In this document: positions 2,264-40,674 of the stretch, piece after piece | Layout of the letters: every line of letters begins with the position of its first letter | Numbering within the stretch: the stretch's first letter is position 1 | The notes under the pieces: generated by a model | What the model saw: the letters and a program-made list of their open reading frames with translations, nothing else | The model's database searches: none | What the model was told of the DNA's origin: nothing | DNA from: an uncultured Chloroflexia bacterium | GTDB taxonomy: Bacteria; Chloroflexota; Limnocylindria; Limnocylindrales; CSP1-4 | Length of the DNA stretch: 64,000 nucleotides | NCBI GenBank assembly: GCA_963763775.1 | Contig: CAVXPZ010000003.1 | Coordinates: forward strand, 384,001-448,000 | Reading direction: 5' to 3' | Position numbers and translations under genes: made by a program

Positions 2264-5957
<3,694 letters not shown>

Positions 5958-5958
5958 G

Positions 5959-6489
5959 GTGCGCGAGGTCCGGACCTCGCCACTCGCTCGGTTCGAGTTC
6001 GAACCGCACAACTGCTTCGCGTGCGGCTCGCTGAACACGGGCGGACTCCAGTTGTCGCTCCATCTGGACGATGCCCGGTCGTGGGCGGACATCACGCTCG
6101 ACCGACGCTTCGAGGGGTGGGAGGGGATCGCCCACGGCGGGATCCTGTGCACGATCCTGGACGAGGTCATGGCCTGGGCCCTCGTCGCCGAGGACAACTG
6201 GGGCGTGACCGCCCGCATGAACGTCGAGTTCCGAAAGCCGGTCTCGGTCGGCACGCCGATCCGGGCCGAAGGCTGGATCGTCCGGTCGCGCCGACGCATC
6301 GTCGAGACCGAAGGGCGCATCAGCGACGTCGAGACGGGCTCGGTGCTCGCGACGGCGACCGGGACCTACGTCGCGGCCGACGCCGAACGCAAACGCCAGC
6401 TGCGGGAGCGCTACGGGTTCCGCCTGCTCGAGATGCGCGGGGATACCGACACGCCCGGCTCCGTGGACAGCCAGGGGCGCCCGCGATGA
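5959..6489 (+). CDS. PaaI-family (hotdog fold) thioesterase
   Basis: CFACG..N, GIAHGGILCTILDEVM; start inferred at the GTG just after the gyrB stop. Confidence 0.85.
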   Translation: MREVRTSPLARFEFEPHNCFACGSLNTGGLQLSLHLDDARSWADITLDRRFEGWEGIAHGGILCTILDEVMAWALVAEDNWGVTARMNVEFRKPVSVGTPIRAEGWIVRSRRRIVETEGRISDVETGSVLATATGTYVAADAERKRQLRERYGFRLLEMRGDTDTPGSVDSQGRPR

Positions 6490-7520
6490 CGCCGGCCACG
6501 ACCGCCCCTGCGGAGGCCGCGCCGACCACGGCGCCGTCTGCCGAGTCAGCCGACAGCGCCCGCGTGCGCAGCCCCATCACCGAGCGGGCGGTGGCCTTCG
6601 TCGCCGAGCGCCGGCCGACCGCCGAGGCCATCGGCGCCGGCCTGGCCGACCACATCGGCGATCCGGACGCGTTCGCCAAGGCCCTGACCGCCGGTCTCCA
6701 GCAGCTGGCCGATCCGGAGTATCTCGAGGGTGCCCAGCGGATCGCCCCCGGCCTCGGTCCGGTCTACGGCGTCCGCTGGCCGTTGATGGCCGCGATCGCG
6801 CGTGGCTTCCGCCACGCCACACGGCAGGACCGGCCGACGCCGCTGCTCTTCATCGCCGATCGCCTCTTCGATGAGTCCCACCTCGAACCCCGCTGGTTCG
6901 CCTTCGGCCTCCTCGAGCGCACGCTGGGCGGCGAGACCGAGCGGACCTGGCAACTGCTGCGCCGCGCCGCCCGCGAGTCCGGCGACTGGATCACGGTCGA
7001 TTCGCTCGCGCATCCGTACGGCAAGGGCGTGCTCGCGGAGGCGTATCGCTGGGCCGAGCTGGAGCAGCTCGTGTACTCCCCGTCGCGCTGGGAGCGCCGC
7101 CTGGTCGGCTCGACCATCGCGACCATCCCGTTCGCGGACCGCCGCCTCGGCCGCGACCCCGAGGTGGTTCGCCGGGCCATCCCGATCCTTGCCCAGCTCA
7201 TCGGCGACGCCGAGCCCGACGTCCAGAAGGCCCTTTCCTGGGCGTACCGCTCGATGGCGGCCGTGGACCTCGCCATGACGACCGACGCGCTGCGCGCCGA
7301 GACGGACCGCGCGGCCGAGACGCACGACGGCCATCGCGCCTGGGTCATCCGCGACACCCTGGCCAAGCTCGACCCGGCCGATGCCGCCGAGCTCCGGACA
7401 CGCCTCGACGGCATCCGCAAGCGCCCCGGCGCGCCGACGACCTCGACCGCCGCCGAGACGGCCGCCCGTTTCGGCGAGCTGCCCGACCCGGCGATGTTCC
7501 CCGACCCACCGCTCACCTGA
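6486..7520 (+). CDS. DNA alkylation repair protein (AlkD-like HEAT-repeat)
   Basis: YGVRWP, WITVDSLA, WERRL, VQKALSWAYR motifs typical of the AlkD family; ATGA overlap with the thioesterase. Confidence 0.75.
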   Translation: MTPATTAPAEAAPTTAPSAESADSARVRSPITERAVAFVAERRPTAEAIGAGLADHIGDPDAFAKALTAGLQQLADPEYLEGAQRIAPGLGPVYGVRWPLMAAIARGFRHATRQDRPTPLLFIADRLFDESHLEPRWFAFGLLERTLGGETERTWQLLRRAARESGDWITVDSLAHPYGKGVLAEAYRWAELEQLVYSPSRWERRLVGSTIATIPFADRRLGRDPEVVRRAIPILAQLIGDAEPDVQKALSWAYRSMAAVDLAMTTDALRAETDRAAETHDGHRAWVIRDTLAKLDPADAAELRTRLDGIRKRPGAPTTSTAAETAARFGELPDPAMFPDPPLT

Positions 7521-7551
7521 CGAACCTGACCACCTGGAGGAGTAGCGCGAC

Positions 7552-10116
7552 GTGACCGACGACCTCGGCGACATCCGGGCCATCCGCATCGAGGACGAGA
7601 TGCGGACCAGCTACCTCGACTACGCGATGAGCGTGATCGTGGCGCGCGCGCTCCCCGATGTCCGCGACGGCCTCAAGCCGGTCCACCGCCGGATCCTCTA
7701 CACGATGGGCGAGATGGGGCTCTCGTCCAACAGCTCCTACCGCAAGTGCGCCGCGATCGTCGGCGAGGTGATGGGCAAGTACCACCCGCACGGCGACGTC
7801 GCCCTGTACGACGCCCTCGTCCGGCTGGCCCAGGACTTCTCGCTGCGCTACCCGCTGGTCGACGGGCAGGGCAACTTCGGATCGGTCGACGGCGACAGTG
7901 CGGCCGCGATGCGCTACACGGAAGCCCGCCTGACGGCGATCGCCGCCGAGATGCTCGACGACATCGATAAGGACACCGTCGACTACGAGGACAACTACGA
8001 CGGGACCCAGCGTCAGCCCACCGTCCTGCCGGCAAAGCTCCCGAACCTCCTCATCAACGGCTCGTCCGGCATCGCCGTCGGCATGGCCACGAACATCCCG
8101 CCGCACCACCTCGGCGAGATCGTGGACGCGGCCGTCGCCATCATCGACGACCCCGACCTCACGTCGGACGACCTCTGCAAGTTCGTCCTCGGGCCGGACT
8201 TCCCGACCGGCGGCACGATCTTCCGCTACGAGAAGCAGCGCAACGCCCTCACCGGGGAGTGGGAGACCGTCGACGCCATCCGGCAGATGTACGCCCACGG
8301 CCGCGGCCGCGTCGTGATGCGCGCGCAGGTCGCGTTCGAGGAGGTCCGCGGCGATCGCACGGCGATCATCGTCACCGAGCTGCCGTACCAGGTGAACAAG
8401 GCGACGCTCCTCGAGAAGATCGCGGAGCTCGTCAAGGACAAGCGGATCGAGGGCATCGCCGACCTGCGCGACGAGTCCGACCGCGACGGGATGCGGATCT
8501 ACGTCGAGATCAAGCGCGACGCGAATCCGCACAAGGTCATGAACAACCTCTTCAAGCACACGCCGATGCAGCTCGCGTTCAACATGAACATGCTCGCGCT
8601 CGTCGACGGCCAGCCCCAGACGCTCCCGCTCCGGAGCGTGCTGGTCCACTACATCGACCACCGTCAGGACATCGTCCGCCGCCGGACCGAGTTCGACCTC
8701 GGCAAGGCGCGCTCGCGGGCGCACATCCTCGAAGGCCTCAAGATCGCGCTCGACCACCTCGACGCGGTCATCAAGACCATCCGCGAGTCCGCCGACGTCG
8801 AGCTGGCGCGCTCGAACCTCATGTCGCGGTTCGACCTCTCCGAGCTCCAGGCGCAGGCCATCCTCGACCTGCGGCTGGCCCGCCTCGCGGCCCTCGAGCG
8901 CCAGAAGATCGAGGACGAGTACCTCTCGGTCATCCAGCTGATCGCCGAGCTCGAGGACATCCTCGCGAACCCGGCGCGCGTGCTCCAGATCATCAAGGAC
9001 GAGCTGGCCGAGCTGAAGAAGAAGTACGCCGGCGAGCGGCGGACGCGCGTCGCGGACGACGCCAGTCGCGAGATGACCGACGAGGACCTCATCGCCGACG
9101 AGGACGTCGTCGTGACGATCTCGGGCCGCGGCTACATCAAGCGGCAGCCGGTCGACACCTATCGCCGCCAGCACCGTGGCGGGAAGGGGATCATCGGCCA
9201 CGTCACCCGCGAGGAGGACGCGGTCGAGAGCCTGCTCGTCGCGAACACGCACGATTGGGCGCTCTTCTTCACGAATCGCGGCCGCGTGTTCTCGGCCAAG
9301 GTCCACGCCATCCCCGACGCCAGCCGCCAGGCGAAGGGCATCCCGATCATCAACCTGCCGGGCGTCCAGGTGGAATCGGGCGAGGTCCCGATGGCCACGA
9401 TCATGCTGCCCGACTTCCAGGCTGGCTCCTATCTCGTGCTGGCCACGCGCAACGGCATCGTCAAGAAGACCCCGCTGGAGCAGTTCGAGCGGGTCCGCTC
9501 CTCGGGGATCCGGGCGATCACGATCGCCGACGACGACGAGCTCGCCTGGGTCGACGTCTCGACCGGCGCGGACGACGTCATCATCGCCACATCCAAGGGC
9601 AAGCTGGCCCGCTTCGCCGAGACCGAAGTCCGGGCGATGGGCCGCGACGCCGCGGGCGTGATCGGCATCCGGCTCGCCCGCCAGGGGGACGCCGTCGTGG
9701 GCATGAGCATCGTCCAGCCGAATGCGGACATCCTGGTGCTCACCGAGACCGGCTACGGCAAGCGCGTGCCGCTGACCGAGTTCCGCCGCAAGCATCGGGG
9801 CGGCCAGGGGGTCGGCCTGATCTCGCTCGAGGGCCGCAAGACCGGCGACGTCGCCGCGGTCCAGCAGGTCACCGACGAGGACGAGGAGCTGCTCCTCATC
9901 TCGGCGGGCGGCCAGGTCATCCGGACCGAGACGAACACGATCAACCGCTACTCCTCGTCCGCGCGCGGCGTCATCGTCATGCGCCTGGCCGAAGGCGACC
10001 GTGTCGTGGCGATCGCGGCGTTCCGCGCCGGACTTGCGGAGCGGGACGGCATGGGCGACGATGGCGACCCCACGCCGGGCGGACCCGGGTCGGCCGCGCC
10101 GACCGGCGGCGGGTGA
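7552..10116 (+). CDS. gyrA: DNA gyrase subunit A
   Basis: [37 protein letters not shown], GyrA-box QHRGGKG; SD GGAGG. Confidence 0.98.
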
Positions 10117-11257: not shown

Positions 11258-11505
11258 CCCTCCAGCTCCACCAGCCCGACGACGAAGGCGGTCTCGCCCC
11301 GCGTGTCGTGACCGACAAGAACTGGCGCAACCAGCTGCGCTCCGCGCGCTGGGGCCGGGACCTCGACGGTGGGCACCTGCCGGCCCTGAAGAACCCCGAG
11401 ATGAACCCGACGTCACGCCTGCGGTCCGTGATGTTCTGGGCCGCGCTCGGCGTCCTGACGTTCGGACTCCTCGTCGTGGGGTACGGCACCGGCTTCTGGT
11501 CCTGA
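11254..11505 (+). CDS. Small hypothetical protein with C-terminal transmembrane helix
   Basis: ATGA overlap with prs, GC3-rich codons, hydrophobic C-terminus. Confidence 0.7.
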   Translation: MTLQLHQPDDEGGLAPRVVTDKNWRNQLRSARWGRDLDGGHLPALKNPEMNPTSRLRSVMFWAALGVLTFGLLVVGYGTGFWS

Positions 11506-11554
11506 GCCGTTTCCGGGGGCCGAACGGCGACCCGCCCCTATACTTGACCGTCCC

Positions 11555-14520
<2,966 letters not shown>

Positions 14521-22786: not shown

Positions 22787-23589
22787 AGGCCGGGATCACG
22801 CTCACCGTCGGCGGTCCGCGCGAGACGGCCGCCCTGGCGGCGGAAGCCGAAGCCGCGGGCTGGGACGGCGTCTTCACCTGGGACGGGATCGCGATCGGGA
22901 CGACCGAGACCTACGACCCGTGGGTCGTCCTGGCGGCGATCGCGATGCGGACCGAGCGCGTCCGGATCGGCGCGCTCGTCACGCCGCCGGCTCGACGACG
23001 GCCGTGGAAGCTGGCGCGCGAGACCATGACCCTGGATGTGCTCTCCGCCGGCCGGCTCGTGCTGCCGGTCGGACTCGGGGCCCTGGACGACGGGGCGTTC
23101 GGCAACGTCGGGGAGCCGACGGAGGCGCGGGTCCGGGCCGAGCGCCTCGACGAGAGCCTGGCGATCCTCGAGGGCCTGTGGAGCGGCGAACCGTTCGGGT
23201 TCGCCGGCGAGCACTACCGGTTCGACCCGATGACGTTCCTCCCGACGCCGGTGCAGCGCCCGCGGATCCCGATCTGGGTGATCGGGGCGTGGCCGAGCGA
23301 ACGGTCGGTGCGTCGCGCCCTCCGCTTCGACGGCATCCTGCCTCAATCCGACGACCCGGCGGTGGTCCGCGAGGTCGCCGCCCTCGTCGAGCGCGAGCGA
23401 CCCGCGGCGTCTCGCGACCGGCCGTTCGACATCGTCGTCGAAGGCGTCACCGCCGATCCGGCACGGGTCGACGACACGGTCGGGCCGATGCGCGAGGCCG
23501 GGGCGACCTGGTGGATCGAGTCGGACTGGACCGGCGCGACGGTGGACTCGCTCCGGCGGCGGATCGCGGCGGGGCCGCCGGCCGGCTGA
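22783..23589 (+). CDS. LLM class flavin-dependent oxidoreductase
   Basis: AEAAGWDGVF, DPWVVLAAIA..TERVRIG, LDVLSAGRLVL, PVQRPRIPIW; GTGA overlap. Confidence 0.88.
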   Translation: MKAGITLTVGGPRETAALAAEAEAAGWDGVFTWDGIAIGTTETYDPWVVLAAIAMRTERVRIGALVTPPARRRPWKLARETMTLDVLSAGRLVLPVGLGALDDGAFGNVGEPTEARVRAERLDESLAILEGLWSGEPFGFAGEHYRFDPMTFLPTPVQRPRIPIWVIGAWPSERSVRRALRFDGILPQSDDPAVVREVAALVERERPAASRDRPFDIVVEGVTADPARVDDTVGPMREAGATWWIESDWTGATVDSLRRRIAAGPPAG

Positions 23590-23620
23590 CCGAGGCCGCC
23601 CTCGCCCTGACCGCGATCGG

Positions 23621-25327
23621 TCAGCGCAGCCAGTACCGGCGATTGAGCGGGAGCACGTCCACAGGAGCGACCTCGAGCGCCCGACCGGCGAGCGTCACGC
23701 GGCCATCCGACCGGTCCACCTCGATCGGCGCCGTCGCGCGGTTCCGGGCGAGCGCCTCGCGGGTGATCCCTCGAGTGCCCCCGACGGCGACGGCTGTGCG
23801 TCCCGGAGCCTCGAGGCGCGCGACCAACCGGCGGTCCGCGGCACCGTGCGCGGACACGAACGTCAGCGACAGGCTCGCGGCCGCCCGACCGTCGCCACCC
23901 CAGTCCGGCCGGTAGCGGGTGGGCTCCGCGTGATCGACGGTGGCGTTGCCCTCGCCCAGCGGGCCCCACGCGGCGACACCGCCCTTCAGCACGAGCTCAG
24001 GTTTCACGCCGAAATACGCCGGGCTCCACAGGACGATGTCGGCGAGCCGTCCGGGCGCGAGCGACCCCACGTGGTCCGAGATGCCGTGGGCGATGGCCGG
24101 CTCCGTGGTGACCTTGGCCAGGTAGCGGAGCACCCGGTCGTTCGCGTCGAACAGGTCGCCGCTCTCTGGCGGGAGCCCGGGATGACCGGCGCCGGCCGTT
24201 GACGCGCGCCACGCCTGCATGACGTGGGCGAGCTGGAACGTCCGCCGGACCGTCTCCATCATCCGGCCCATGCCCTGTGAGTCCGAGTTGACGATCGCGA
24301 TCGCCCCGAGCTCGTGGAGCGGACCCTCGGCCGCCATCGACGCCGGGTGGACGCGCTCCGAGACGAGCGCCACGTCCTCGGCCACGCCGAACGACTGGCC
24401 GTGGTTGAGGATGATCATCGGGATCTGTTCCGCCGCGGCGTTGACGCCGAACGGGATCGTCGGGGTCGTGGACGAGCACAGGATGTTCGGCTCGCGCACG
24501 AGTCCCAGCAGATCCGGGACGTGGCCGCCTCCGCTCCCCTCGACGTGATACGCGTGAACGGTCCGACCCGCGATCGCCGCCACCGTGTCCTCGAGCTCAG
24601 CCGACTCGTGGAGGCCGTCCGTGTGGAGGGCGACCGCCACGTCATGCGCAGTCGCGAACCGCAGCACGTGGTCGATGAGTTCGGGATAGGCGCCGTAGTC
24701 CTCATGGATCTTGAACCCGCAGGCCCCGGCGTCGAGCAGCGCCTCGAGGACGGCATCGTCCTCGGCGCGGGCGCAGGCCTGCAGGCCGACGTTGAGCGGC
24801 CAGGTCGCAAGGCGATCGAGGGTGCGGGCCATCGCGTACGGCGGCTCCTCGAAGCCCGCTGTGAGCAGGGTGGTCACGCCGCCGGACAGGGCCGCTGGGA
24901 GCAGCTCGGGCGTGATGAGGTGCACGTGACTGTCGACCGCGCCGGCCGTCGCGATGAGGCCGTAGCCCATGATGGGCTGGGTGTGCGGGCCGATCGGCAG
25001 GTCGATGCCGTCGCTGACCGCGTCGCTCCCGGCCCGACCGACGCCGACCACGCGGCCGTCCTTGATCCCGATGTCGGCCTTCACGACGCCGATGAGCGGA
25101 TCGACGACGAGCGCACCGGCGATGACGACATCGAGCTCCGACGGGCCGGGACGGCCCTGGATCGAGCGTGGCCGGATGGTCTTGGCGTAGCCCCAGATCG
25201 GCTCGTCGCCGGGAGCCTGCCGGTCCTCCTCGACGCGGACCCACAGGTCCGTGTCGGCGAGCCGGACCCGGTCGCCGGTCGTGGGACCGTAGCGGGCGAG
25301 GCGCTCCTGCGGGGTGAGGCGCGTCAC
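23621..25327 (-). CDS. Urease alpha-subunit-like amidohydrolase (divergent)
   Basis: YGPTTGDRVRLADTDL, DSHVH, FKIHED, HTD, HAYHVEGSGGGH, SDSQGMGR; substrate loop and flap altered. Confidence 0.88.
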   Translation of the reverse strand: MTRLTPQERLARYGPTTGDRVRLADTDLWVRVEEDRQAPGDEPIWGYAKTIRPRSIQGRPGPSELDVVIAGALVVDPLIGVVKADIGIKDGRVVGVGRAGSDAVSDGIDLPIGPHTQPIMGYGLIATAGAVDSHVHLITPELLPAALSGGVTTLLTAGFEEPPYAMARTLDRLATWPLNVGLQACARAEDDAVLEALLDAGACGFKIHEDYGAYPELIDHVLRFATAHDVAVALHTDGLHESAELEDTVAAIAGRTVHAYHVEGSGGGHVPDLLGLVREPNILCSSTTPTIPFGVNAAAEQIPMIILNHGQSFGVAEDVALVSERVHPASMAAEGPLHELGAIAIVNSDSQGMGRMMETVRRTFQLAHVMQAWRASTAGAGHPGLPPESGDLFDANDRVLRYLAKVTTEPAIAHGISDHVGSLAPGRLADIVLWSPAYFGVKPELVLKGGVAAWGPLGEGNATVDHAEPTRYRPDWGGDGRAAASLSLTFVSAHGAADRRLVARLEAPGRTAVAVGGTRGITREALARNRATAPIEVDRSDGRVTLAGRALEVAPVDVLPLNRRYWLR

Positions 25328-25331
25328 GAGG

Positions 25332-25946
25332 TCACCCGCGGCCGCCTGGCTCGCCTGGACCGCGATGCCCGCCGAAGCGGACCAGGCGGACGGTCCGGGT
25401 CTCGCCCGGCGACCAGCGCTCGGTCGAGCCGGACGGGAGATCGAGGCGGTACCCGGCCGCGGCGGCCCGGTCGAATTCGAGTCGCGGGTTGACGCGCTCG
25501 AACGGGTAGTGGCTCGACACCCGGACGACCCGGGTCGAGCCGTTGCGGACCGTGAGCTGGATCGCCTCCGTCGCGTCGGCGCCGGCCGGCGCGGCGTCGC
25601 TCGTCGACGCGAGACGGACGGCTCCAGGACCGTCCTCCGCTGCCGGGCCGAGCGGGTCGAGCAGCACGACGAGCCGCGTCCCGTCGTCCATCAGGACCTC
25701 GAGCGTGACGCGGTCGACGAGCGCCGGCACGCCCGGAAGGACCTCGGCCGGATCGACCGCTCCACGCCCGGCCGCCTCCACCTCGGCGTAGGTGGCCCCG
25801 GCGCGGGCCGCCTCGAGCATCGCGTCGCAGATCAGCGCGACGGCCTCGGGGGCGTTGAGCGCCAGGCCGGCCGCCCGATGGCGCCGAGCCAGCTCGGCCG
25901 CGGTGAAGATCAGGAGGCGCTCCTCCTCCCAGTGGGTCAGCCGCAT
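25332..25946 (-). CDS. Urease gamma/beta fusion subunit-like protein
   Basis: MRLTHWEEERLLIF..LNAPEAVALI (gamma) fused to VRVSSHYPFERVNPRLEFDR..GYRLDLPSG (beta). Confidence 0.9.
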   Translation of the reverse strand: MRLTHWEEERLLIFTAAELARRHRAAGLALNAPEAVALICDAMLEAARAGATYAEVEAAGRGAVDPAEVLPGVPALVDRVTLEVLMDDGTRLVVLLDPLGPAAEDGPGAVRLASTSDAAPAGADATEAIQLTVRNGSTRVVRVSSHYPFERVNPRLEFDRAAAAGYRLDLPSGSTERWSPGETRTVRLVRFGGHRGPGEPGGRG

Positions 25947-25979
25947 CGACCCATCGTAGCGGCGTCGGGCGCCGGCGCG

Positions 25980-27260
25980 CTAGGGCGCGATCGACGACCG
26001 GCTCGACGCGGTTCGCAGGTCGGGCGCCATCGTGGGTCGCGCCGGCTCCGGGATGGCGATCGGGGCCGCTGGGGTCGCGGCCGGCATCCCGGCTCGCGCG
26101 TAGAGGACGACCCCGATCCCCGTCGCGACGGCGCACAGGAGCAGGCCCGCCGTGACATCGACGATCCCGGCCTGGAGCAGCGCGCTCATGAGGAACGCGG
26201 CGACGATCCCGCGCGCGCCGGTGATCGCATTCCAGCCGGCCATCGCGGCCGCGCGCGACTGGAGCGGCGTGTGGTCGCTGACGACGGCGGCGATGCCGAC
26301 ATCGATCGAGGCGCTCGCCGCGCCGGCCGCCAGCGCCGCGACCCACAGCACGAGGACGCTCGGCGCGAACGCCACGGCGATCAGCGAGAGCAGGCCCATC
26401 GTCGTGCCGATGCGCATCGCGACGAGCGCTCCGAAGCGGTCGCTCACCACGCCCCAGGCCATGAACGAGACCGTGGTCGAGGCCGCCGTCAGGATGCCGA
26501 TGATGCCGACGTCGGCGAGCGACAGGTCGAGCCGATCGACGTACACGAGCGCGTAGAGCGGAAGCGCGGCGATCAGCCCGCCGCCGTAGAACCCCTGGGC
26601 CAGGGCCACCTTCGAGAGGACCGGGCGCTCGCGCAGGGCGCGGATGGAGTCACGGGCGGAGAACACCGGCGGCCGCTCGGCAGCTCGCGCGCGGAACCCC
26701 ACGTACGCGATCGCGCACACAGCGCCGACGATCCCCGCGATCGCGACGGCCGTCGGCCCGCCCAGTCGGTCGGCGATGATCCCGCCGGCGAAGGCCGCGA
26801 GCGCCGCTGCGGCGGCCCGACCCGTGCCGATGACGCCGACGATCCGGCCGCGAAGTCGGGCCGGGTACATCGCGCCCCACAGGCGCAGGTGGAACGGGCT
26901 CCCGAACGACAGGCTGATCCAGAAGATGACCGTGGCGACGACCATGACCGGCGCCGTCGGCACGACGAACAGGGCGACGAGACTGGCCGACCCGATGGCG
27001 CGGATCAGCGCCAGCTGGCCGGTCGAGCGTGGCCCGAAGCGGCCGGCGAACGCGCCGAGCAGGTTGGCGATGAACGGGGCCGCGGCGAGCGCCGCGAGAC
27101 CCATCGGCTCGAGGCCGCCGCGCCGGGCGATCGTCGGCAGGAGGGAGGTGACGAGGGCGGCGCTGACGCCGACGCCGACGCCCGCGACGAGGTCGAGGGC
27201 GAGGTTGCGCCCGACCGCGCGCTGCGTCGGAGAAGGATGGATCGCCGGCCGGAACACCAC
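25980..27260 (-). CDS. MFS transporter
   Basis: About 12 hydrophobic segments, GGIIADRLG and GVVSDRFG motif-A-like loops. Confidence 0.88.
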   Translation of the reverse strand: MVFRPAIHPSPTQRAVGRNLALDLVAGVGVGVSAALVTSLLPTIARRGGLEPMGLAALAAAPFIANLLGAFAGRFGPRSTGQLALIRAIGSASLVALFVVPTAPVMVVATVIFWISLSFGSPFHLRLWGAMYPARLRGRIVGVIGTGRAAAAALAAFAGGIIADRLGGPTAVAIAGIVGAVCAIAYVGFRARAAERPPVFSARDSIRALRERPVLSKVALAQGFYGGGLIAALPLYALVYVDRLDLSLADVGIIGILTAASTTVSFMAWGVVSDRFGALVAMRIGTTMGLLSLIAVAFAPSVLVLWVAALAAGAASASIDVGIAAVVSDHTPLQSRAAAMAGWNAITGARGIVAAFLMSALLQAGIVDVTAGLLLCAVATGIGVVLYARAGMPAATPAAPIAIPEPARPTMAPDLRTASSRSSIAP

Positions 27261-27283
27261 GTACCTCGAAGCAAGCCCGCTTG

Positions 27284-27389
27284 GCCTGCGAGGTGAGCTG
27301 TCGGGCTCGGCGTGGGTTCGCCGTCGCGGTCGCTCCGCGATTCGCCCCAGGTGGTGGGTCCCCCGTCCTCAGCGTGCTGAGGCTCGGCC
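27284..27389 (-). ncRNA. Cyclic di-AMP (ydaO/yuaA) riboswitch
   Basis: Minus strand GCCGAGCCTCAGC..GCTGAGG-ACGGGGGACCCA..TGGGGCGAATC..GCCGAGCCCGACAGCTCACCTCGCAGGC matches the ydaO consensus blocks; lies in the MFS leader. Confidence 0.88.
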
Positions 27390-27399
27390 AGGGACAACC

Positions 27400-27930
27400 T
27401 TACCAGTCATCGCGCACTCGGGGCGATGGCCCGTTGGTCCTACGACGCGGGCGGGCTCGCGGTGCCGTCCCGGCACATCCGGCGCAGAGCCCGGTGATCG
27501 TGATGTGCGAGCGGTCCACCGAGAAGGACCGCCCCGCGTCGAGCATCGACACGATCGCGTCGGCCTCGCCCGGCTGGATCTCCCACGAGCCGCCACAGGC
27601 GTGGCAGTGGAGATGCCCGTGCTCATCGGTCGGGAGGACGTGGTACTCCTCGCGGCCGTCGATGCCGTGGTGGTGGCTGACGTACCCGAGGTCTTCGAGG
27701 ACGTCGAGCGTCCGATAGACCGTCGATGGCGTCGTGGTCGGGTCCAGCTCGCGGCAGCGCTCGACGAGATCACTGCCGGTCACGTGGCCGTCGACCTGGC
27801 TCAGGACGTCCACGAGCGTCCGCCGCTGCGGTGTCCAGCGAAGCCCTTCGGCGTGCAGTCGCTCACGGACACCCGGCCATCCAGGCGACGCGGCGGCGTC
27901 CTTCGACCCGGCCGTCGTGGATCCGGGCAC
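27400..27930 (-). CDS. Fur family transcriptional regulator (Nur/Zur-like)
   Basis: GLRWTPQRR, STVYRTLDVLEDLG, HGHLHCHACG, GLCAGC. Confidence 0.92.
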   Translation of the reverse strand: MPGSTTAGSKDAAASPGWPGVRERLHAEGLRWTPQRRTLVDVLSQVDGHVTGSDLVERCRELDPTTTPSTVYRTLDVLEDLGYVSHHHGIDGREEYHVLPTDEHGHLHCHACGGSWEIQPGEADAIVSMLDAGRSFSVDRSHITITGLCAGCAGTAPRARPRRRTNGPSPRVRDDW

Positions 27931-27932
27931 GG

Positions 27933-28892
27933 TCAGAACGGCAGGATCGAGCCGAGGTCCGGCAGGACGCCGTCGAGCCCGAAGAGGAAGACGGCGCCGA
28001 TGATGAGGCTGAAGCAGCCGGCGACGGCGCCGATCCCGACGTAGATCCGCTCGCGCGTCTGGCTCGCGACGAACCCGACCGAGCTGATCATCACGATCGC
28101 GAAGTTCGAGAGCAGCAGGCCGATGACGAACGCGAAGAGCATCGGCACCCCGAGCCCGGCACTCGCCGCACCGCCGACCGCGGCGATGAGGAGCACCTGC
28201 GTGCCGGTCTCCGCGCCGATCCCGTGGATCATGCCGACGCCGAAGGCCGTCCTCGTCCCGTACGAGCTCATCTCGAGCGGCTCGACGTGCTCGTGGCCGT
28301 GGAGCCGCGCCTGGAGATGGCGCCAGCCGAGCCGCATGCCGTCGAACACGAGCATCCACCGGCTCCGGATCCGGAACGACTCGCCGGCCCGTGCGTAGCG
28401 GTACACCGAGTAGAGCACCCAGACCCCGAGCAGGACCAGTGTCAGGCCGACGATCCGACCCATGATCGGGTCGAGCCAGTCGGGGAGGAGCGCGCCGAAC
28501 GCCAGCGCGGCGAGGCCCAACGCGATGACGACGGCCCCGTGTCCGAGGGCGTACAGCGTGCCGAGGCGGATCGCCTCGACCTGCTCGCCGGAGAGGAGTC
28601 TCGGGCGGGACCGCGTGATCATCATCGCGGGGGCGAGCGTCGCCGCGCCCGGGCCGGCGTCGTGGGCCCGCTTCTCGGTGGTGCCGCCGTGGACGTGGTG
28701 GTCGCCGGTGACGTCGCGGTGCTGCTCCTGGTGGGCCGCCTCGGCGACGCCGGCGGCCGCGGCCGTGCTCGTGATGTCGGTGATCGCGGCGATATGGTCC
28801 CAGTCGATCCCGTGGCGGATGCCCAGGAGCAAGCCGGTCACGAGGATGCCGACCGCCGCCGGGTCCAGCATGATCTGCCCGCCGATATCCAC
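27933..28892 (-). CDS. NiCoT (HoxN/HupN/NixA)-like nickel/cobalt transporter
   Basis: GIRHGIDWDHIAAI signature, YALGHG, GMIHGIG, His-rich loop; SD GGAGG. Confidence 0.8.
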   Translation of the reverse strand: MDIGGQIMLDPAAVGILVTGLLLGIRHGIDWDHIAAITDITSTAAAAGVAEAAHQEQHRDVTGDHHVHGGTTEKRAHDAGPGAATLAPAMMITRSRPRLLSGEQVEAIRLGTLYALGHGAVVIALGLAALAFGALLPDWLDPIMGRIVGLTLVLLGVWVLYSVYRYARAGESFRIRSRWMLVFDGMRLGWRHLQARLHGHEHVEPLEMSSYGTRTAFGVGMIHGIGAETGTQVLLIAAVGGAASAGLGVPMLFAFVIGLLLSNFAIVMISSVGFVASQTRERIYVGIGAVAGCFSLIIGAVFLFGLDGVLPDLGSILPF

Positions 28893-29094
28893 CACTCGCA
28901 CCTCCGCTGGTCGCCCTCAGGGTACCGGCGACCGCTCGTTGTTGCAACACGTCGCAGTTACGCCCCCGGCCCGCTGGACTCGTCCACCTGGTGATACGAA
29001 CGGCCACGCCGAGCGGATGCATCGCGGCGGGATGCTGGCGGAACGCCCGGGTCGGTGATAGCATCCCCGGTCCGAACCGGTGTTCGGCACCTGT

Positions 29095-29470
29095 GGGGAT
29101 GTGTGGTTTCGACAGGGCTTGGCTACCGGGGAACGCGAGCCGAGGATGCTGCTCAGGCCTCGTTAATCAGGCAGCAAAACGAAGTACCTGGCAACCGCCA
29201 GTCGACTCTCGCCCTCGCTGCTTAGGCAGTAAGGTGAGCGTGGAAGCGACCTCCGCCTCGCGGGTCGTGGAAGCGTCACTCAGCGAGGCTGCGATCCGGA
29301 CCAGCGTCACGTAGTCCGGAGTCAAGCCCGATCTAGGGGCACGTGACTGGACCGCCCGGCAGAGTGCCGATGCCCGTCCGGGCGGTCGACGACAAACCAT
29401 CGGACACGCTCGTAGTGGTCTCCGGCGAAGGGTCCTGGACGGGGAGTTCGACTCTCCCCCATCTCCACCA
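29095..29470 (+). ncRNA. ssrA: tmRNA
   Basis: 5' GGGGATG..GGTTTCGAC, 3' GTTCGACT..CATCTCCACCA with G3-U pair; tag frame 29190-29225 (A)GNRQSTLALAA*. Confidence 0.95.
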
Positions 29471-29516
29471 AACACTCCGGCCGGGCGATCCGGTCGGCAG
29501 GTGGTGGCCGCTCCGA

Positions 29517-29824
29517 TCAGACCGGCGGCGGGTCCTTGAGCTCCACGCCGATGACGACGAGGTCGTCCGACCCGGTGTTCTCGATGGTGTGCCGGGGCGT
29601 CCCCTCGGAGAACATTACGTGCGGCATGACCCAGTCCGGATCCGCGCTCGTGTCGAACATCGTCGCCCCGGTGTCGTCGCGGCGCACGAACCGCGACCCG
29701 GAGATATCGGCGTGGTGTCGCCCGCGCGGATCGTCGTCTCCAGGACGCGCACTCGTTCATTCTCGAACAGCACCCTGTGGTGGTCCGGCGCGGCCATCGG
29801 CCCGTCCTGGTCATCGGGTGGCAT
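29517..29824 (-). pseudogene. Cupin-domain protein, frameshifted with apparent internal deletion
   Basis: HHRVLFENERVRVLE..AGDTTP continues in another frame as ISGSRFVRRD..HTIENTG..VIGVELK; the HxH motif expected between them is absent. Confidence 0.6.
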
Positions 29825-36490: not shown

Positions 36491-37877
36491 ATGGACGCGA
36501 AGCAGGTCTGGCGCGCGGCTCTCGGTGAGCTGCAGGTCTCGCTTTCCCCGGCGAACTACGAGACATGGCTGCGCGACACGCAGCTCGTCGACGTGGAGGA
36601 CAACCGGTTCCGGATCTCGGTCCCGAACGGCTTCGCCAAGGACTGGCTCGAGACCCGCTACCGATCGTTGATCAGCCAGACCCTCGCGCGGATCGTCGGC
36701 TATAGCGTCCAGGTCGAGTTCGTGATCGGGACGTCGTCGGCCGAGTCGGCGGCGCCGGACGGCGCCGAGCCCATCGGCCAGGCGGACGCCGTCGCCGGCT
36801 GCGGCGAAGCACGTCCGCGTGGAGCCCACCCGCGTCGGCGGCGAGGGCGGCACCACCAACATCAATCCGCGCTACACGTTCTCGAACTTCATCGTCGGCT
36901 CGGCGAACCGCCTGGCCCATGCGGCGAGCCTGTCCGTGGCGGAACGGCCGGGGCACGCCTACAACCCGCTGTTCCTCTACGGCGGGGTCGGACTCGGCAA
37001 GACCCACCTGATGCACGCCATCGGGAACCAGGTCATCGCCAAGTTCCCGCGCAAGCGCGTCGTCTACGCCACCAGCGAGAAGTTCACCAACGAGTTCATC
37101 ACCTCGATCCAGCAGGGCAAGATCGACGAGTTCCGCGCCCGATACCGCCGGATCGACCTGCTCCTCATCGACGACATCCAGTTCATCGCGGACAAGGAGC
37201 GGACGCAGGAAGAGTTCTTCCATACGTTCAATGCCATCCACGAGGACGGCAAGCAGATCGTCATGTCGTCCGACCGGCCGCCGAAGGCCATCCTCACCCT
37301 GGAGGAGCGCCTCCGCAGCCGGTTCGAGTGGGGCCTGATCGCCGACCTGACGGCGCCGGACCTGGAGACGCGCATCGCGATCCTGCGGGCCAAGGCGGAA
37401 GAGGGCTCGCTGCCGATCACGTCGGACGTCATCGAGTTCATCGCGCGCAAGGTCGTGAGCAACATCCGCGAGCTCGAGGGGGCGCTGAACCGGATCGTCG
37501 CCTACGCGAGCATGGGCGCCACGCCGATCAGCATCGAGCTCGCCCAGGCGGTCCTCTCGAACGTCCTCTACAACCCCAAGAAGCGGATGGTGACGCCCGA
37601 GCGCATCGCCAAGGCCGTGTCGGACTACTACAGCGTCCCGATGGACGTCCTCCAGGGGCAGAAGCGCGACAAGTCGATCGTCATGCCGCGCCAGATCGCG
37701 ATGTTCCTGATGCGCGAGGAGACCGACGTCTCGCTCCTGCGGATCGGCGCAGAGCTCGGCGGACGGGACCACTCCACGGTCCTGCACGCCTGCGACAAGA
37801 TCACCCGCGAGTCCGCGGTCAACGATGAGTTGCGGCGCGAGATCGCCGCCGTCCGCGAGCTCATCTACGCCGACTAG
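36491..37877 (+). CDS. dnaA: Chromosomal replication initiator DnaA; apparent +1 frameshift near 36760-36800 (domain II linker)
   Basis: Domain I (MDAKQVW..YETWL..VPNGF) in one frame; [22 protein letters not shown] and [11 protein letters not shown] in the next. Confidence 0.95.
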
Positions 37878-38349
37878 CACGCCCGCCGGACCCCTCCGGC
37901 GAACGCCATCCGCCACGCCAGACCCGTCTCGACGGCCATTTCGTGTGGATAACCGCGCCAAATCGGTGGAAAACCATGCCCGGGTGTGGACATCCACACC
38001 GACCCGTGTCGACCACCGGGCGCCTCTGACGGCAGGTCGTGGATGGTCCCGCGAGTCCTCCACCATCCATCCCTGGTCGCATCCCCGACCGACGGAGCCT
38101 CGTCCCCACACCGGGCGTCGCCATCCACAGTCCCGCCGAACGGCGCCGAGCACGGATGTCCACGCGCTCCACACCATGATGACGGTGATGACGGAGTGAG
38201 AAGATAGAGAGAAGATACCCACCACCCATGCGGACGGCCCGGAACGCCGAGCACCATCCAGGACGCGATCCCGCCGACCGCCTGCCCAGCCCCATCGGCG
38301 TCGCGGTCGCACCGTCCGCCGTCACGACGATGCTTGGAGTGAACCCGAC
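37878..38349. other. Probable oriC (DnaA box cluster)
   Basis: Perfect TGTGGATAA at 37944-37952 and degenerate boxes at 37965, 37985, 37990, 38102, 38121 and 38165, between dnaA and dnaN. Confidence 0.8.
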
Positions 38350-39468
38350 GTGAGACTCTCGGTGATGCAAGAGAACCTGGCGCGTGGCCTGTCCGTCGTC
38401 AGCCGCGCCGTCTCGAGCCGAAGCACCCTCCCGGTCCTGGCCAACGTCCTGCTCAAGACCGAGGACGCCGGACTCAAGCTGACCGCGACGAACCTCGAGA
38501 TCGGCATCACGTACTGGGTCCCCGGCAAGATCGAGACCGACGGGGCGACGACCGTGCCGGCCAAGCTCCTCACGGACCTCGTCAACTCCCTCCCGGCGGG
38601 CGACAAGATCGACCTGGAGCTCACCTCGGGCGAGTCGCTCCACCTTCGCAGCGGTCGCTTCGAGACGCACATCAAGGGCATCGACGCGGACGAGTTCCCG
38701 GCGATCCAGACCGCCGGCGACCGGCCGACGACGCGGGTCGCCCAGAACATCCTGCGACAGGCGCTGACCGAGACCGCGTTCGCGGCCGCCAGTGACGAGG
38801 CGCGACCGATCCTGACCGGTGTCCTGGCGAAGTTCGAGGGCGACCAGCTGACGCTGGCGGCCGCGGACAACTACCGGATCGCGGTGAAGACCATCCCGAT
38901 CCTCGACGCGGTCCCCGAGACGAGCGTCGTCATCCCGGCTCGCGCGCTCAACGAGCTCGCCCGGGTCCTCGCGGACGTCGACGACCCCGTGGACATCGTC
39001 CTGGCGGCCGGCCGCAACCAGGTCCTGTTCCACCTCGACGGCATCGACCTCGTGAGCCGGCTCATCGACGGCCAGTTCCCGAACTACCAGCAGGTGGTTC
39101 CCAAGGAGCACACGACCCGCGCGGTCCTCGATCGCGAGGAGCTCCTCAAGGCCGTCCGCCCGGCGGCGCTCATCGCCCACGAGTCGGCAAACATCGTCAA
39201 GCTCCAGATCGGTGCCGAGGGCGAGCCCGGCATCACGGTCAGCGCCAACGCCGAGGTCGGCGACCACGTCGGCCAGGTCGAGGCGACCGTGGAGGGCGAC
39301 GGCACGACGATCGCGTTCAACGCCCGCTACCTCGCGGACGTCCTCACGAACGTGGATGCCGAGCAGTTCGCGCTCGAGCTCAACGGGCCGCTCTCGCCGG
39401 GCGTCTTCAAGCCGATCGGCGACGACCGCTACGTCCACGTCGTCATGCCCGTCCGCACGACCTCCTAA
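38350..39468 (+). CDS. dnaN: DNA polymerase III beta sliding clamp
   Basis: LPVLANVLL, ATNLEIGI, RPILTGV, SRLIDGQFPNY, VVMPVR. Confidence 0.97.
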   Translation: MRLSVMQENLARGLSVVSRAVSSRSTLPVLANVLLKTEDAGLKLTATNLEIGITYWVPGKIETDGATTVPAKLLTDLVNSLPAGDKIDLELTSGESLHLRSGRFETHIKGIDADEFPAIQTAGDRPTTRVAQNILRQALTETAFAAASDEARPILTGVLAKFEGDQLTLAAADNYRIAVKTIPILDAVPETSVVIPARALNELARVLADVDDPVDIVLAAGRNQVLFHLDGIDLVSRLIDGQFPNYQQVVPKEHTTRAVLDREELLKAVRPAALIAHESANIVKLQIGAEGEPGITVSANAEVGDHVGQVEATVEGDGTTIAFNARYLADVLTNVDAEQFALELNGPLSPGVFKPIGDDRYVHVVMPVRTTS

Positions 39469-39513
39469 AGCGACGACCGGAGGCCGGACCGGCCTCGACC
39501 GGACCGGGACACC

Positions 39514-40674
39514 CTGCTCGATTCCATCCGCCTGCTCGACCTCCGGGGGTACCCCGCCCTCGAGGTGACCTTCGGCCCGGGCCCGCACCTGGTCTGGGGC
39601 CCGAACGCGGCGGGCAAGACCAGCCTGCTCGAGGCGATCGTCCTGCTGGCGTGGGGCCGGTCGCACCGGACGTCGTCGGACGGCGAGCTCATCCGCTGGG
39701 GGACCGACCTCGCCCGCGTCGAGGGCCACGTCGGGATCGATGTCGTCGAGGTGGCCGTGGCGCGGTCGGGCGCCGGAGGCACCAGCGGGCGCAAGCGGAT
39801 CCGCGTGAACGGCGTCGGCCGGCGAGCCGGCGGCCTCGAGGGCCCGCTTCGCGTCGTCGTCTTCGCGCCGGAGGAGATGCTCCTCGTGATCGGTTCGCCA
39901 GGTCTGCGCCGAGCCAGCCTCGACCAGCTCGTGGCGGCCACGACCCCGGGCTACGGCAGCACGCTCGCGACGTACGGGCGCGCGCTCCAGCAGCGCAACG
40001 GGCTGCTCCGCGCGATCCGGGAGGAGGGAGCCGGCCGAGACGAGCTGCGCTTCTGGGACGCCGCGTTCCTGGACGCCGGGGGGCGGATCGTCGCCGACCG
40101 GCTCGCGCTCATCGGCCGGCTCGCGGCGCCTTTGGCGCGGGCCCACGCGGAGATCGCCCCCGACGAGGCCGCCGCCGCAGCCCTGACCGTCCGCTACGCG
40201 ACGAACGCCCCGGCGAACCCTGGAGAGACCCCCCGGGACGCGCTCGCCCGGCGTCTCGTCGAGACGGCCGACAAGGAGGTCTGGAACGGGGCGACCCTCG
40301 TCGGCCCGCATCGCGACGACCTCGTCTTCGAACTCGCGGGCCGGGACCTCGCGAGTTTCGCGTCTCGCGGCCAGCAGCGGACCGCGATCCTGTCCTTCAA
40401 GCTCGCCGAGCTCGACCTGCTCACGGAGCAGGACGGCCGTCCGCCACTCCTGCTGCTCGACGACGTGTTCTCGGAGCTCGACCCGGACCGACGTGCGCAC
40501 CTCGTGCGGCGGATCGCCGAGCTGCCGCAGGCGTTCGTCACGACGACGACCCTCGACGACCTCGACCCGGCCCTGCGGGCGATCGGGACCTCGTGGGAGG
40601 TCCGGGCCGACGCCGACGGCGCTCGGCTGATGCCCCCTGCGGGTACGCCCAGCGAGGCGGTCCCGGGGTCGTGA
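39514..40674 (+). CDS. recF: DNA replication/repair protein RecF
   Basis: GPNAAGKTSLLEA, GPHRDD, SRGQQR, LLLDDVFSELD; the N-terminal strand LLDSIRLLDLRGY implies a start at CTG 39514. Confidence 0.93.
   Translation: MLDSIRLLDLRGYPALEVTFGPGPHLVWGPNAAGKTSLLEAIVLLAWGRSHRTSSDGELIRWGTDLARVEGHVGIDVVEVAVARSGAGGTSGRKRIRVNGVGRRAGGLEGPLRVVVFAPEEMLLVIGSPGLRRASLDQLVAATTPGYGSTLATYGRALQQRNGLLRAIREEGAGRDELRFWDAAFLDAGGRIVADRLALIGRLAAPLARAHAEIAPDEAAAAALTVRYATNAPANPGETPRDALARRLVETADKEVWNGATLVGPHRDDLVFELAGRDLASFASRGQQRTAILSFKLAELDLLTEQDGRPPLLLLDDVFSELDPDRRAHLVRRIAELPQAFVTTTTLDDLDPALRAIGTSWEVRADADGARLMPPAGTPSEAVPGS

Follow-up and report, generated by a model that had tools for sequence, protein, structure and literature searches.

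A urease-type gene pair with a rebuilt active-site loop in an uncultured Chloroflexota bacterium: probably an uncharacterised relative of urease

Results

Two genes for a urease-type enzyme

The DNA analysed here (the window) comprises 64,000 nucleotides (nt) of an uncultured Chloroflexia bacterium of soil or freshwater (assembly GCA_963763775.1, contig CAVXPZ010000003.1, positions 384,001 to 448,000). Within positions 23621-25946 of the window lie two minus-strand genes, ureAB upstream and a ureC-like gene downstream, which together specify a complete urease-type enzyme. ureAB (25332..25946) codes for a fused gamma/beta subunit of 204 amino acids (P0002) with Pfam matches to Urease_gamma (8.4e-28; residues 1-98) and Urease_beta (4.2e-23; residues 125-195). 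The end of ureAB is separated by 4 nt from the start codon of the ureC-like gene (23621..25327), whose product, an alpha subunit of 568 amino acids (P0001), matches Urease_alpha (2.7e-31) and Amidohydro_1 (6.9e-37). Both reading frames are intact and show high third-position GC. The architecture of urease, namely an N-terminal Urease_alpha domain and an amidohydrolase barrel accompanied by gamma and beta subunits, was recognised from the Pfam domains, the fold match described below and the adjoining ureAB gene.

The structure of P0001 was modelled with AlphaFold 2 from a 102-sequence alignment (predicted local distance difference test, pLDDT, 91.3; predicted template modelling score, pTM, 0.94). 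When this model was compared with the PDB by Foldseek, ranks 1-39 were all occupied by ureases (template modelling score, TM, 0.91-0.94; 37-41% identity), and the matches after rank 39 were hydantoinases and allantoinase with TM below 0.5. A solved structure from the clade of P0001, which is named TAGFEEPP here after its characteristic motif, was not found in the PDB by this search.

Assignment to known protein families gave a graded result. Among the NCBIfam models, P0001 scored above the cut-off solely for the subfamily model NF009686 'urease subunit alpha' (604 vs 354), and it stayed below the cut-off of every urease-alpha equivalog (TIGR01792, 528.7 vs 680; NF009685, 530.7 vs 907; NF009834, 482.6 vs 1001). 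P0002 likewise scored under the cut-off of NF009671 (211.2 vs 243). The ESM Atlas contributed only generic clusters, 'urease subunit alpha' for the alpha subunit and 'MFS' for a neighbouring transporter of the major facilitator superfamily (MFS).

Conserved and altered residues of the active site

An initial annotation, made from the sequence alone, had described a urease-like enzyme with an intact di-metal centre and a rebuilt substrate pocket. All motifs that it quoted were found again in P0001 at 23621-25946, i.e. HVH at residue 134, TAGFEEPP at 156, FKIHED at 205, HTDGLHE at 235, YHVEG at 260, ILNHGQ at 306 and SDSQGM at 348. P0001 was aligned to UreB of Helicobacter pylori with HMMER and to UreC of Thermus thermophilus, Rubrobacter indicoceani and a Klebsiella aerogenes plasmid with MAFFT. 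According to these alignments the six metal ligands are kept (H134, H136, K206, H235, H261 and D349), and the di-metal centre is indeed intact. Residues engaged in catalysis and substrate binding are kept as well: H208 and D210 of the KxHED motif, the flap histidine H309, and R325, the first arginine of the RIR motif. Past the deletion described next, the numbering of P0001 would correspond to that of K. aerogenes urease minus 11 (K217, H219, D221, C319 and H320, as they appear in PDB titles).

In P0001, TAGFEEPP stands in place of the loop GGGTGPxxGTxATTxTPG, which is conserved in canonical ureases, and the protein is 11 residues shorter at this point. The HMMER and MAFFT alignments and an alignment of 267 full-length proteins agree that this is a true deletion, as the initial annotation had supposed; in the latter alignment the segment measures 27 residues in the clade and 38 residues in the canonical rows. 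The deleted loop presumably carries the backbone carbonyl (that of Ala170 in Sporosarcina pasteurii) which forms a hydrogen bond to one nitrogen of urea.

Further changes surround the metal site. In the flap, MVCHHL of canonical urease is changed to ILNHGQ, by which the catalytic histidine stays in place, the cysteine becomes asparagine and the second histidine becomes glycine. In addition, HTDTLNE is changed to HTDGLHE, and RIR to RVH. Not all of the substitutions listed at the outset set P0001 apart. SDSQGM, YHVEG and a flap without cysteine (MTSHHL) are also present in the K. aerogenes plasmid urease (locus L084), which is adjoined by annotated ureG and ureF genes, and these three features are therefore not diagnostic. 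The changes which are the clade's own are the loop deletion, HH to HG in the flap, HTDT to HTDG, and RIR to RVH.

A conserved clade outside the canonical UreC group

A word-indexed protein search returned 7952 relatives of P0001 among 8000 scored candidates, the best 120 of which were 76-100% identical to it, and an exhaustive search of representatives at 50% identity yielded 464 proteins at E<=1e-30. The nearest relatives come from metagenome-assembled genomes (MAGs) of Chloroflexota, many of them labelled Limnocylindria or Limnocylindrales. Relatives share 60-90% identity across hundreds of species, at least several hundred of them in one genome collection, and most of the carriers are Chloroflexota of the Limnocylindria type. 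No protein more than 60% identical to P0001 was found on the plasmids of PLSDB.

Among the 267 aligned proteins, AGFEEPP occurs exactly in 224 and with one residue changed in 15 more, and the segment is short in all 239 of them. The replacement motif is nearly invariant in the clade and can be written TAGF-E-E-P-P-W/Y. All six ligands are kept in 223 of the 224 proteins with the exact motif, the four auxiliary residues likewise in 223, and both sets in all 15 one-residue variants; the pattern is therefore not a product of chance. In a wider alignment of 102 rows (A2) ligands and auxiliary residues are invariant except for D349, which is at least 90% conserved. Two subclades were distinguished. 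The first, to which the window's protein belongs, combines LNHGAS with HTDGLHE. The second combines AVHGGS with HTDGLNE. Its records include a few under the name Actinomycetota and one under Verrucomicrobiae, and MAG labels may be unreliable.

The position of the clade was determined in a careful IQ-TREE run with 44 rows. A branch with support of 100/99 sets the 25 TAGFEEPP rows apart from all others, and the seven canonical rows are set apart in the same way; three of the latter are ureases whose loci also carry annotated genes for accessory proteins or urea transport. P0001 was placed outside the canonical group, which answers the call for a phylogeny against genuine UreC in favour of a separate lineage. 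Sister to the clade (99/97) is P0127, a protein with a different short loop that is 48-49% identical to P0001, and a third group holds further non-canonical proteins, among them copies from Streptomyces plasmids. As P0001 passes the subfamily model only and fails the equivalogs, the NCBIfam result agrees with its place in the tree. The TAGFEEPP proteins form a monophyletic clade that is strongly conserved and distinct from the canonical UreC rows, and P0001 is a urease-fold binuclear-metal amidohydrolase of this clade.

The degree of conservation bears on the question of whether the pair might be the remnant of a urease, catalytically dead or in decay, or might have acquired a non-enzymatic role. 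Such a state would fit the absence of accessory genes nearby and the shortened match to the alpha gene in four related loci. Against it stand the ligands retained in 223 of 224 proteins, the identity of 60-90% across hundreds of species, and the intact reading frames with their high third-position GC. We regard this explanation as highly improbable. In the four loci concerned (L024, L032, L033 and L076) the match to the alpha gene ends at about 11430-11580 and not at about 11700, which may be due to frameshifts, assembly errors or decay. In L076, moreover, ureAB lies about 3.5 kb from the alpha gene, with a peptidase M1 gene between them.

Search for maturation genes

The absence of adjacent ureD, ureE, ureF and ureG, claimed at the outset, was found to extend to the entire window and to the surroundings of related pairs. 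The 54 open reading frames (ORFs) of the window (30 + 23 + 1) were scanned with Pfam, and none belongs to the UreD, UreE, UreF, UreG/CobW, HypA or HypB families. For comparison, the best 80 of at least 555 confirmed matches were taken as related loci with up to 10 kb on each flank; 76 of the 80 are of the HTDGLHE type. Their 963 called ORFs fell into 182 clusters, and Pfam scans of the 181 non-urease representatives (150 + 31) revealed no accessory or urea-transporter family within these flanks.

In addition, tblastn was run with two UreG, two UreF and two presumed UreD sequences from loci L084-L086. No match at E<=1e-3 was obtained in the 64-kb window or in loci L001-L083, the last three of which are the Streptomyces plasmid loci discussed below. 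The reference accessory loci matched one another and served as positive control. The UreD queries were ORFs presumed to encode UreD by position and mutual similarity, without Pfam confirmation, and the search for UreE consisted of Pfam scans of called ORFs.

Gene neighbourhood and putative promoter region

The window has a G+C content of about 70% and covers the replication-origin region of the chromosome, with dnaA, dnaN, recF, gyrB, gyrA, parA, parB, yidC and jag. Origin markers (dnaA, dnaN, recF, parA, parB, gyrB and gyrA) are located at 36819-40674 and 2264-10116. This location marks the urease-like pair as a stable part of the chromosomal core region in its lineage. Of the 80 related loci, 79 encode a UreAB homologue, which immediately precedes the alpha gene except in L076; the sole locus lacking it, L077, begins inside the alpha gene. 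The pair sits between smpB (66 of 80 loci) and the gene for transfer-messenger RNA (tmRNA; tmRNA region in 53 of 80).

The tmRNA gene of the window (29095-29470, plus strand) was detected with Rfam (113.8 bits) and missed by ARAGORN, which found no tRNA or tmRNA. It is overlapped by a minus-strand ORF (29167-29814) with tblastn matches of 55-100% in 53 loci, presumably derived from the tmRNA. At the other side of the pair, a gene for a luciferase-like monooxygenase (22789-23589, plus strand; Pfam 7.8e-37) is flanked by a proline-racemase-family gene and by the end of the ureC-like gene. Its conservation extends over about 800 nt in five related loci and over about 460 nt in L009.

A scan of positions 23000-29200 for consensus promoters and terminators found nothing. 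A TACGAT hexamer is present 6 nt upstream of the ureAB ATG (25953..25958, minus strand), and may be the -10 element of a leaderless ureAB transcript. When offsets of 5-8 nt were allowed, a TAnnnT hexamer was found 6-8 nt before the ureAB start in 63 of the 75 loci with enough upstream sequence, against a background of 0.0006 per position. The element is kept in loci with and without the MFS gene described next.

The gene for an MFS transporter (25980..27260, minus strand; Pfam MFS_1, 2.6e-22) lies 33 nt upstream of ureAB and is present in 38 of the 80 related loci. NCBIfam and the ESM Atlas provided no informative family name for its product, which is a possible functional partner of the pair. 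Kinship with the MFS transporter beside a Streptomyces urease-like pair (see below) was considered and rejected, the two being unrelated (E 0.039). The MFS gene is preceded by an aptamer of the cyclic di-AMP (c-di-AMP) riboswitch of the ydaO/yuaA type (27269..27399, minus strand; Rfam RF00379, 65.3 bits with a gathering threshold of 38, E 6.9e-13, full model 1-134), which ends 8 nt before the MFS start codon; in 35 loci homologous sequence immediately precedes the MFS gene. A role of the riboswitch in regulating the urease-like pair was set aside, given its position before the MFS gene and the absence of that gene from about half of the loci. As the loci without the MFS gene keep the promoter-like element of ureAB, the riboswitch most likely governs the transporter rather than the enzyme.

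Further upstream, positions 27400..27900 (minus strand) encode a Fur-family metalloregulator (Pfam FUR, 1.4e-19), whose exact start codon is uncertain and which falls below all NCBIfam equivalog cut-offs for Fur, Zur and PerR. Close homologues occur at the same place in seven of 80 loci. Upstream of it lies a gene for a distant NiCoT-like membrane protein (27933..28901, minus strand) with a histidine-rich loop and the motif RHGIDWDHI, which is of the HX4DH type that we take to be the NiCoT signature. Its family matches are weak (NicT, 31.7 bits; TIGR00802, 27.9 bits; Pfam NicO, 14.8 bits with a cut-off of 27.7). The NiCoT-like gene recurs in two of 80 loci (L001 and L065), where it is placed immediately before the Fur-family gene as in the window, and in L059 a CbiM-type transporter gene adjoins the Fur gene. 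Transporter genes of the Ni/Co type are thereby found near the pair in four of 81 genomes (the window, L001, L065 and L059), a weak hint that favours nickel or cobalt over iron. The Fur/NiCoT gene pair was dropped as a dedicated nickel supply of the enzyme, since it is present in too few loci (two to seven of 80). Five loci carry an ArsR-family gene divergent from ureAB (cluster 19).

These regulators can be invoked for a self-activating urease with another metal (iron, manganese, cobalt or zinc), which would be either a nickel-independent isozyme like UreA2B2 of Helicobacter mustelae or a weakly self-maturing enzyme like UreABC of Bacillus subtilis. Accessory genes are absent nearby, a Fur-family gene lies upstream in the window and in seven of 80 loci, and an ArsR-family gene precedes ureAB divergently in five; precedents are described for B. 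subtilis (PMC8600894) and for the iron urease of H. mustelae (PMC3919588). The regulator and transporter neighbours, however, are confined to a minority of loci, the sole transporter hints are of the Ni/Co type, and P0001 is not specifically related to UreB2 (431.5 vs 456.8 bits, see below). As the loop deletion would also be left unexplained, this alternative appears unlikely.

Discussion

A candidate hydrolase with altered specificity

The pair is probably an uncharacterised relative of urease. It is almost certainly active as a binuclear-metal hydrolase with the mechanism of urease. It would encode a working urease-type enzyme, composed of a fused gamma/beta and an alpha subunit, from a deep, widespread and so far uncharacterised clade. 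The reaction most likely follows that of urease: two metal ions would be bridged by a carbamylated lysine, a metal-bound hydroxide would attack the carbonyl group in an amide of the urea type, and the histidine of the flap would serve as general acid.

What appears to be rebuilt is the wall of the pocket, where the 11-residue deletion would leave TAGF-E-E-P-P-W/Y, accompanied by the changes of VCHH to LNHG or AVHG in the flap, of HTDT to HTDG, and of RIR to RVH. The deleted loop is the best conserved stretch of that wall, its replacement is conserved as strongly as the ligands, and three residues around the metals have changed to glycine. Taken together, these features point to an altered pocket, and the specificity may well differ from that of classical urease. 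The enzyme might then prefer a urea-like compound or an amide that is substituted or charged, urea being a side substrate at best, and the metal centre might be loaded without dedicated neighbouring UreD, UreF and UreG. We see about an even chance that the pair is a functionally distinct enzyme in this twofold sense, i.e. with a different preferred substrate and with maturation that does without dedicated neighbouring proteins. A more specific proposal is put forward tentatively: the TAGFEEPP clade may embody a new activity on the urease fold, a binuclear-metal hydrolase acting on a urea-like, guanidino or carbamoyl compound that is larger or carries a positive charge. The extra group of this compound would be bound by the Phe-Glu-Glu-Pro-Pro-Trp wall, and the metal centre with its carbamylated lysine would assemble without UreD, UreF and UreG. 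In favour of a distinct function, relatives outside the canonical group are found in contexts other than urea metabolism, namely a non-ribosomal peptide synthetase (NRPS) cluster and an operon with PucR, Amidohydro_3 and MFS genes.

Several points weigh against a distinct function. The case is built on sequence, a structural model and gene context, from which altered specificity, accessory independence and activity of the pair are deduced. All known urea-contacting residues outside the deleted loop are retained, so that urea may still be a substrate. NF009686 accepts P0001, source records name such proteins 'urease subunit alpha', and three of the altered motifs are shared with the K. aerogenes plasmid urease mentioned above. 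No catabolic partner enzymes are conserved beside the pair, and nothing indicates a specific alternative substrate. The genomic view spans 64 kb in the window and 10-kb flanks elsewhere, so that ureDEFG may lie elsewhere, and gene context comes almost wholly from one subclade (76 of 80 loci of the HTDGLHE type).

One alternative is an ordinary, urea-hydrolysing nickel urease of a divergent lineage, which would tolerate the short loop and whose genes for UreD, UreF and UreG would lie in another part of the genome. P0001 retains every ligand as well as the His, Asp, His and Arg that contact urea, and the subfamily model calls it a urease. The site between smpB and the tmRNA gene is stable and housekeeping-like across Limnocylindria, and the Ni/Co-type transporter genes of the window, L001, L065 and L059 would suit a nickel enzyme. 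Streptomyces clusters that consist of ure(AB)C only are treated as urease genes in three papers (PMC2492869, PMC5489568, PMC3293853). On the other hand, where ureases have their most conserved active-site loop this clade has a deletion and another motif, conserved to the same degree. The clade also branches outside the canonical group and falls under every equivalog cut-off, and no accessory or urea-transporter family was found among the neighbours of the 81 loci. An ordinary urease is a possible though somewhat doubtful explanation.

Urease is a textbook enzyme with a near-invariant active site, and ureC commonly serves as an environmental marker for the hydrolysis of urea. The clade described here is large and conserved; its members retain the metal centre, have lost the most conserved loop of the pocket and travel without maturation genes nearby. 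If another substrate is indeed preferred, this would be a new activity in a classic enzyme family and a source of systematic mis-annotation, and 'ureC' counts in soil and freshwater metagenomes would overstate the ureolytic potential of the abundant Chloroflexota and Actinomycetota. If the enzyme is a real urease, the conserved loop is dispensable, and a maturation route without UreD, UreF and UreG may be indicated. Accessory-less ure(AB)C clusters have been known from Streptomyces since 2008, and databases label TAGFEEPP proteins plain urease. A literature search, in which most subscription journals were not covered, found no work on the function, loop, pocket or metal of the clade.

Comparison with known ureases and urease-like pairs

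With the canonical nickel ureases (UreABC of K. aerogenes and S. pasteurii, UreAB of H. pylori) the pair shares the same three domains or subunits and the fold (TM 0.91-0.94), and P0001 has in common with them the six ligands, including the lysine that is carbamylated in urease, the histidine and aspartate of KxHED, the flap histidine and the arginine. It differs from them in overall identity (37-42%), in a loop shorter by 11 residues, and in having LNHG for VCHH, HTDG for HTDT and RVH for RIR. It also stands outside the canonical clade, and no ureDEFG genes were found nearby (64-kb window, 10-kb flanks).

The iron urease UreA2B2 of H. mustelae (PDB 3qga), to which the initial annotation had compared the pair, has a fused gamma/beta subunit as in the window and is said to mature without the standard accessory proteins. 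P0001 aligns to the 3qga chain (563 residues) over 562 residues, as it does to other ureases. The match to 3qga_C (431.5 bits, 39% identity) ranks below that to UreB of H. pylori (1e9y_B, 456.8 bits) and also below that to the K. aerogenes nickel urease. There is no special kinship of P0001 to the iron urease, and the comparison drew no specific support from these scores. The regulation of UreA2B2 by NikR does not apply to the window pair. The enzyme of H. mustelae is described in PMC3919588.

The UreC protein of B. subtilis reportedly has a canonical active-site loop, and its three subunits are separate, in contrast to the fused ureAB of the window. B. subtilis resembles the window in possessing structural genes only; its ureABC genes without accessory genes confer very low activity, so that some activity is seen without UreDEFG (PMC8600894).

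Pairs of similar gene organisation are known from Streptomyces. Clusters made up of ure(AB)C genes only were noted in S. coelicolor and S. avermitilis in 2008 (PMC2492869), ure(AB)C was listed as one of three Streptomyces cluster types in 2017 (PMC5489568), and SCO5525-5526 were called urea-utilising genes in 2012 (PMC3293853). Such clusters, e.g. SCO5525-5526, share with the window pair a fused ureAB and a ureC gene and the lack of accessory genes. The Streptomyces plasmid copies (L081-L083) belong to a non-canonical tree group different from the window clade. On two of the plasmids (L081, 7279-9644; L082, 7267-9647) a ure(AB)-ureC-like pair, annotated as plain urease by the Prokaryotic Genome Annotation Pipeline (PGAP), lies inside an NRPS cluster; its neighbours encode one protein with an adenylation domain, one with a condensation domain, and phosphotransferases, and in L081 a gene annotated as 2-oxoglutarate-Fe(II) (2OG-Fe(II)) oxygenase lies downstream. 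On the third, a plasmid of Streptomyces sp. NBC_00841 (L083, 6049-12721), genes for a PucR-type regulator, UreAB, a UreC-like protein, an Amidohydro_3 enzyme and an MFS transporter follow one another in a row that resembles a catabolic operon, the substrate of which would be rich in nitrogen and different from urea. With UreG, UreF and presumed UreD as queries, tblastn found no accessory genes in these three loci. By analogy, the plasmid loci show how urease-like pairs without maturation genes may serve outside urea metabolism.

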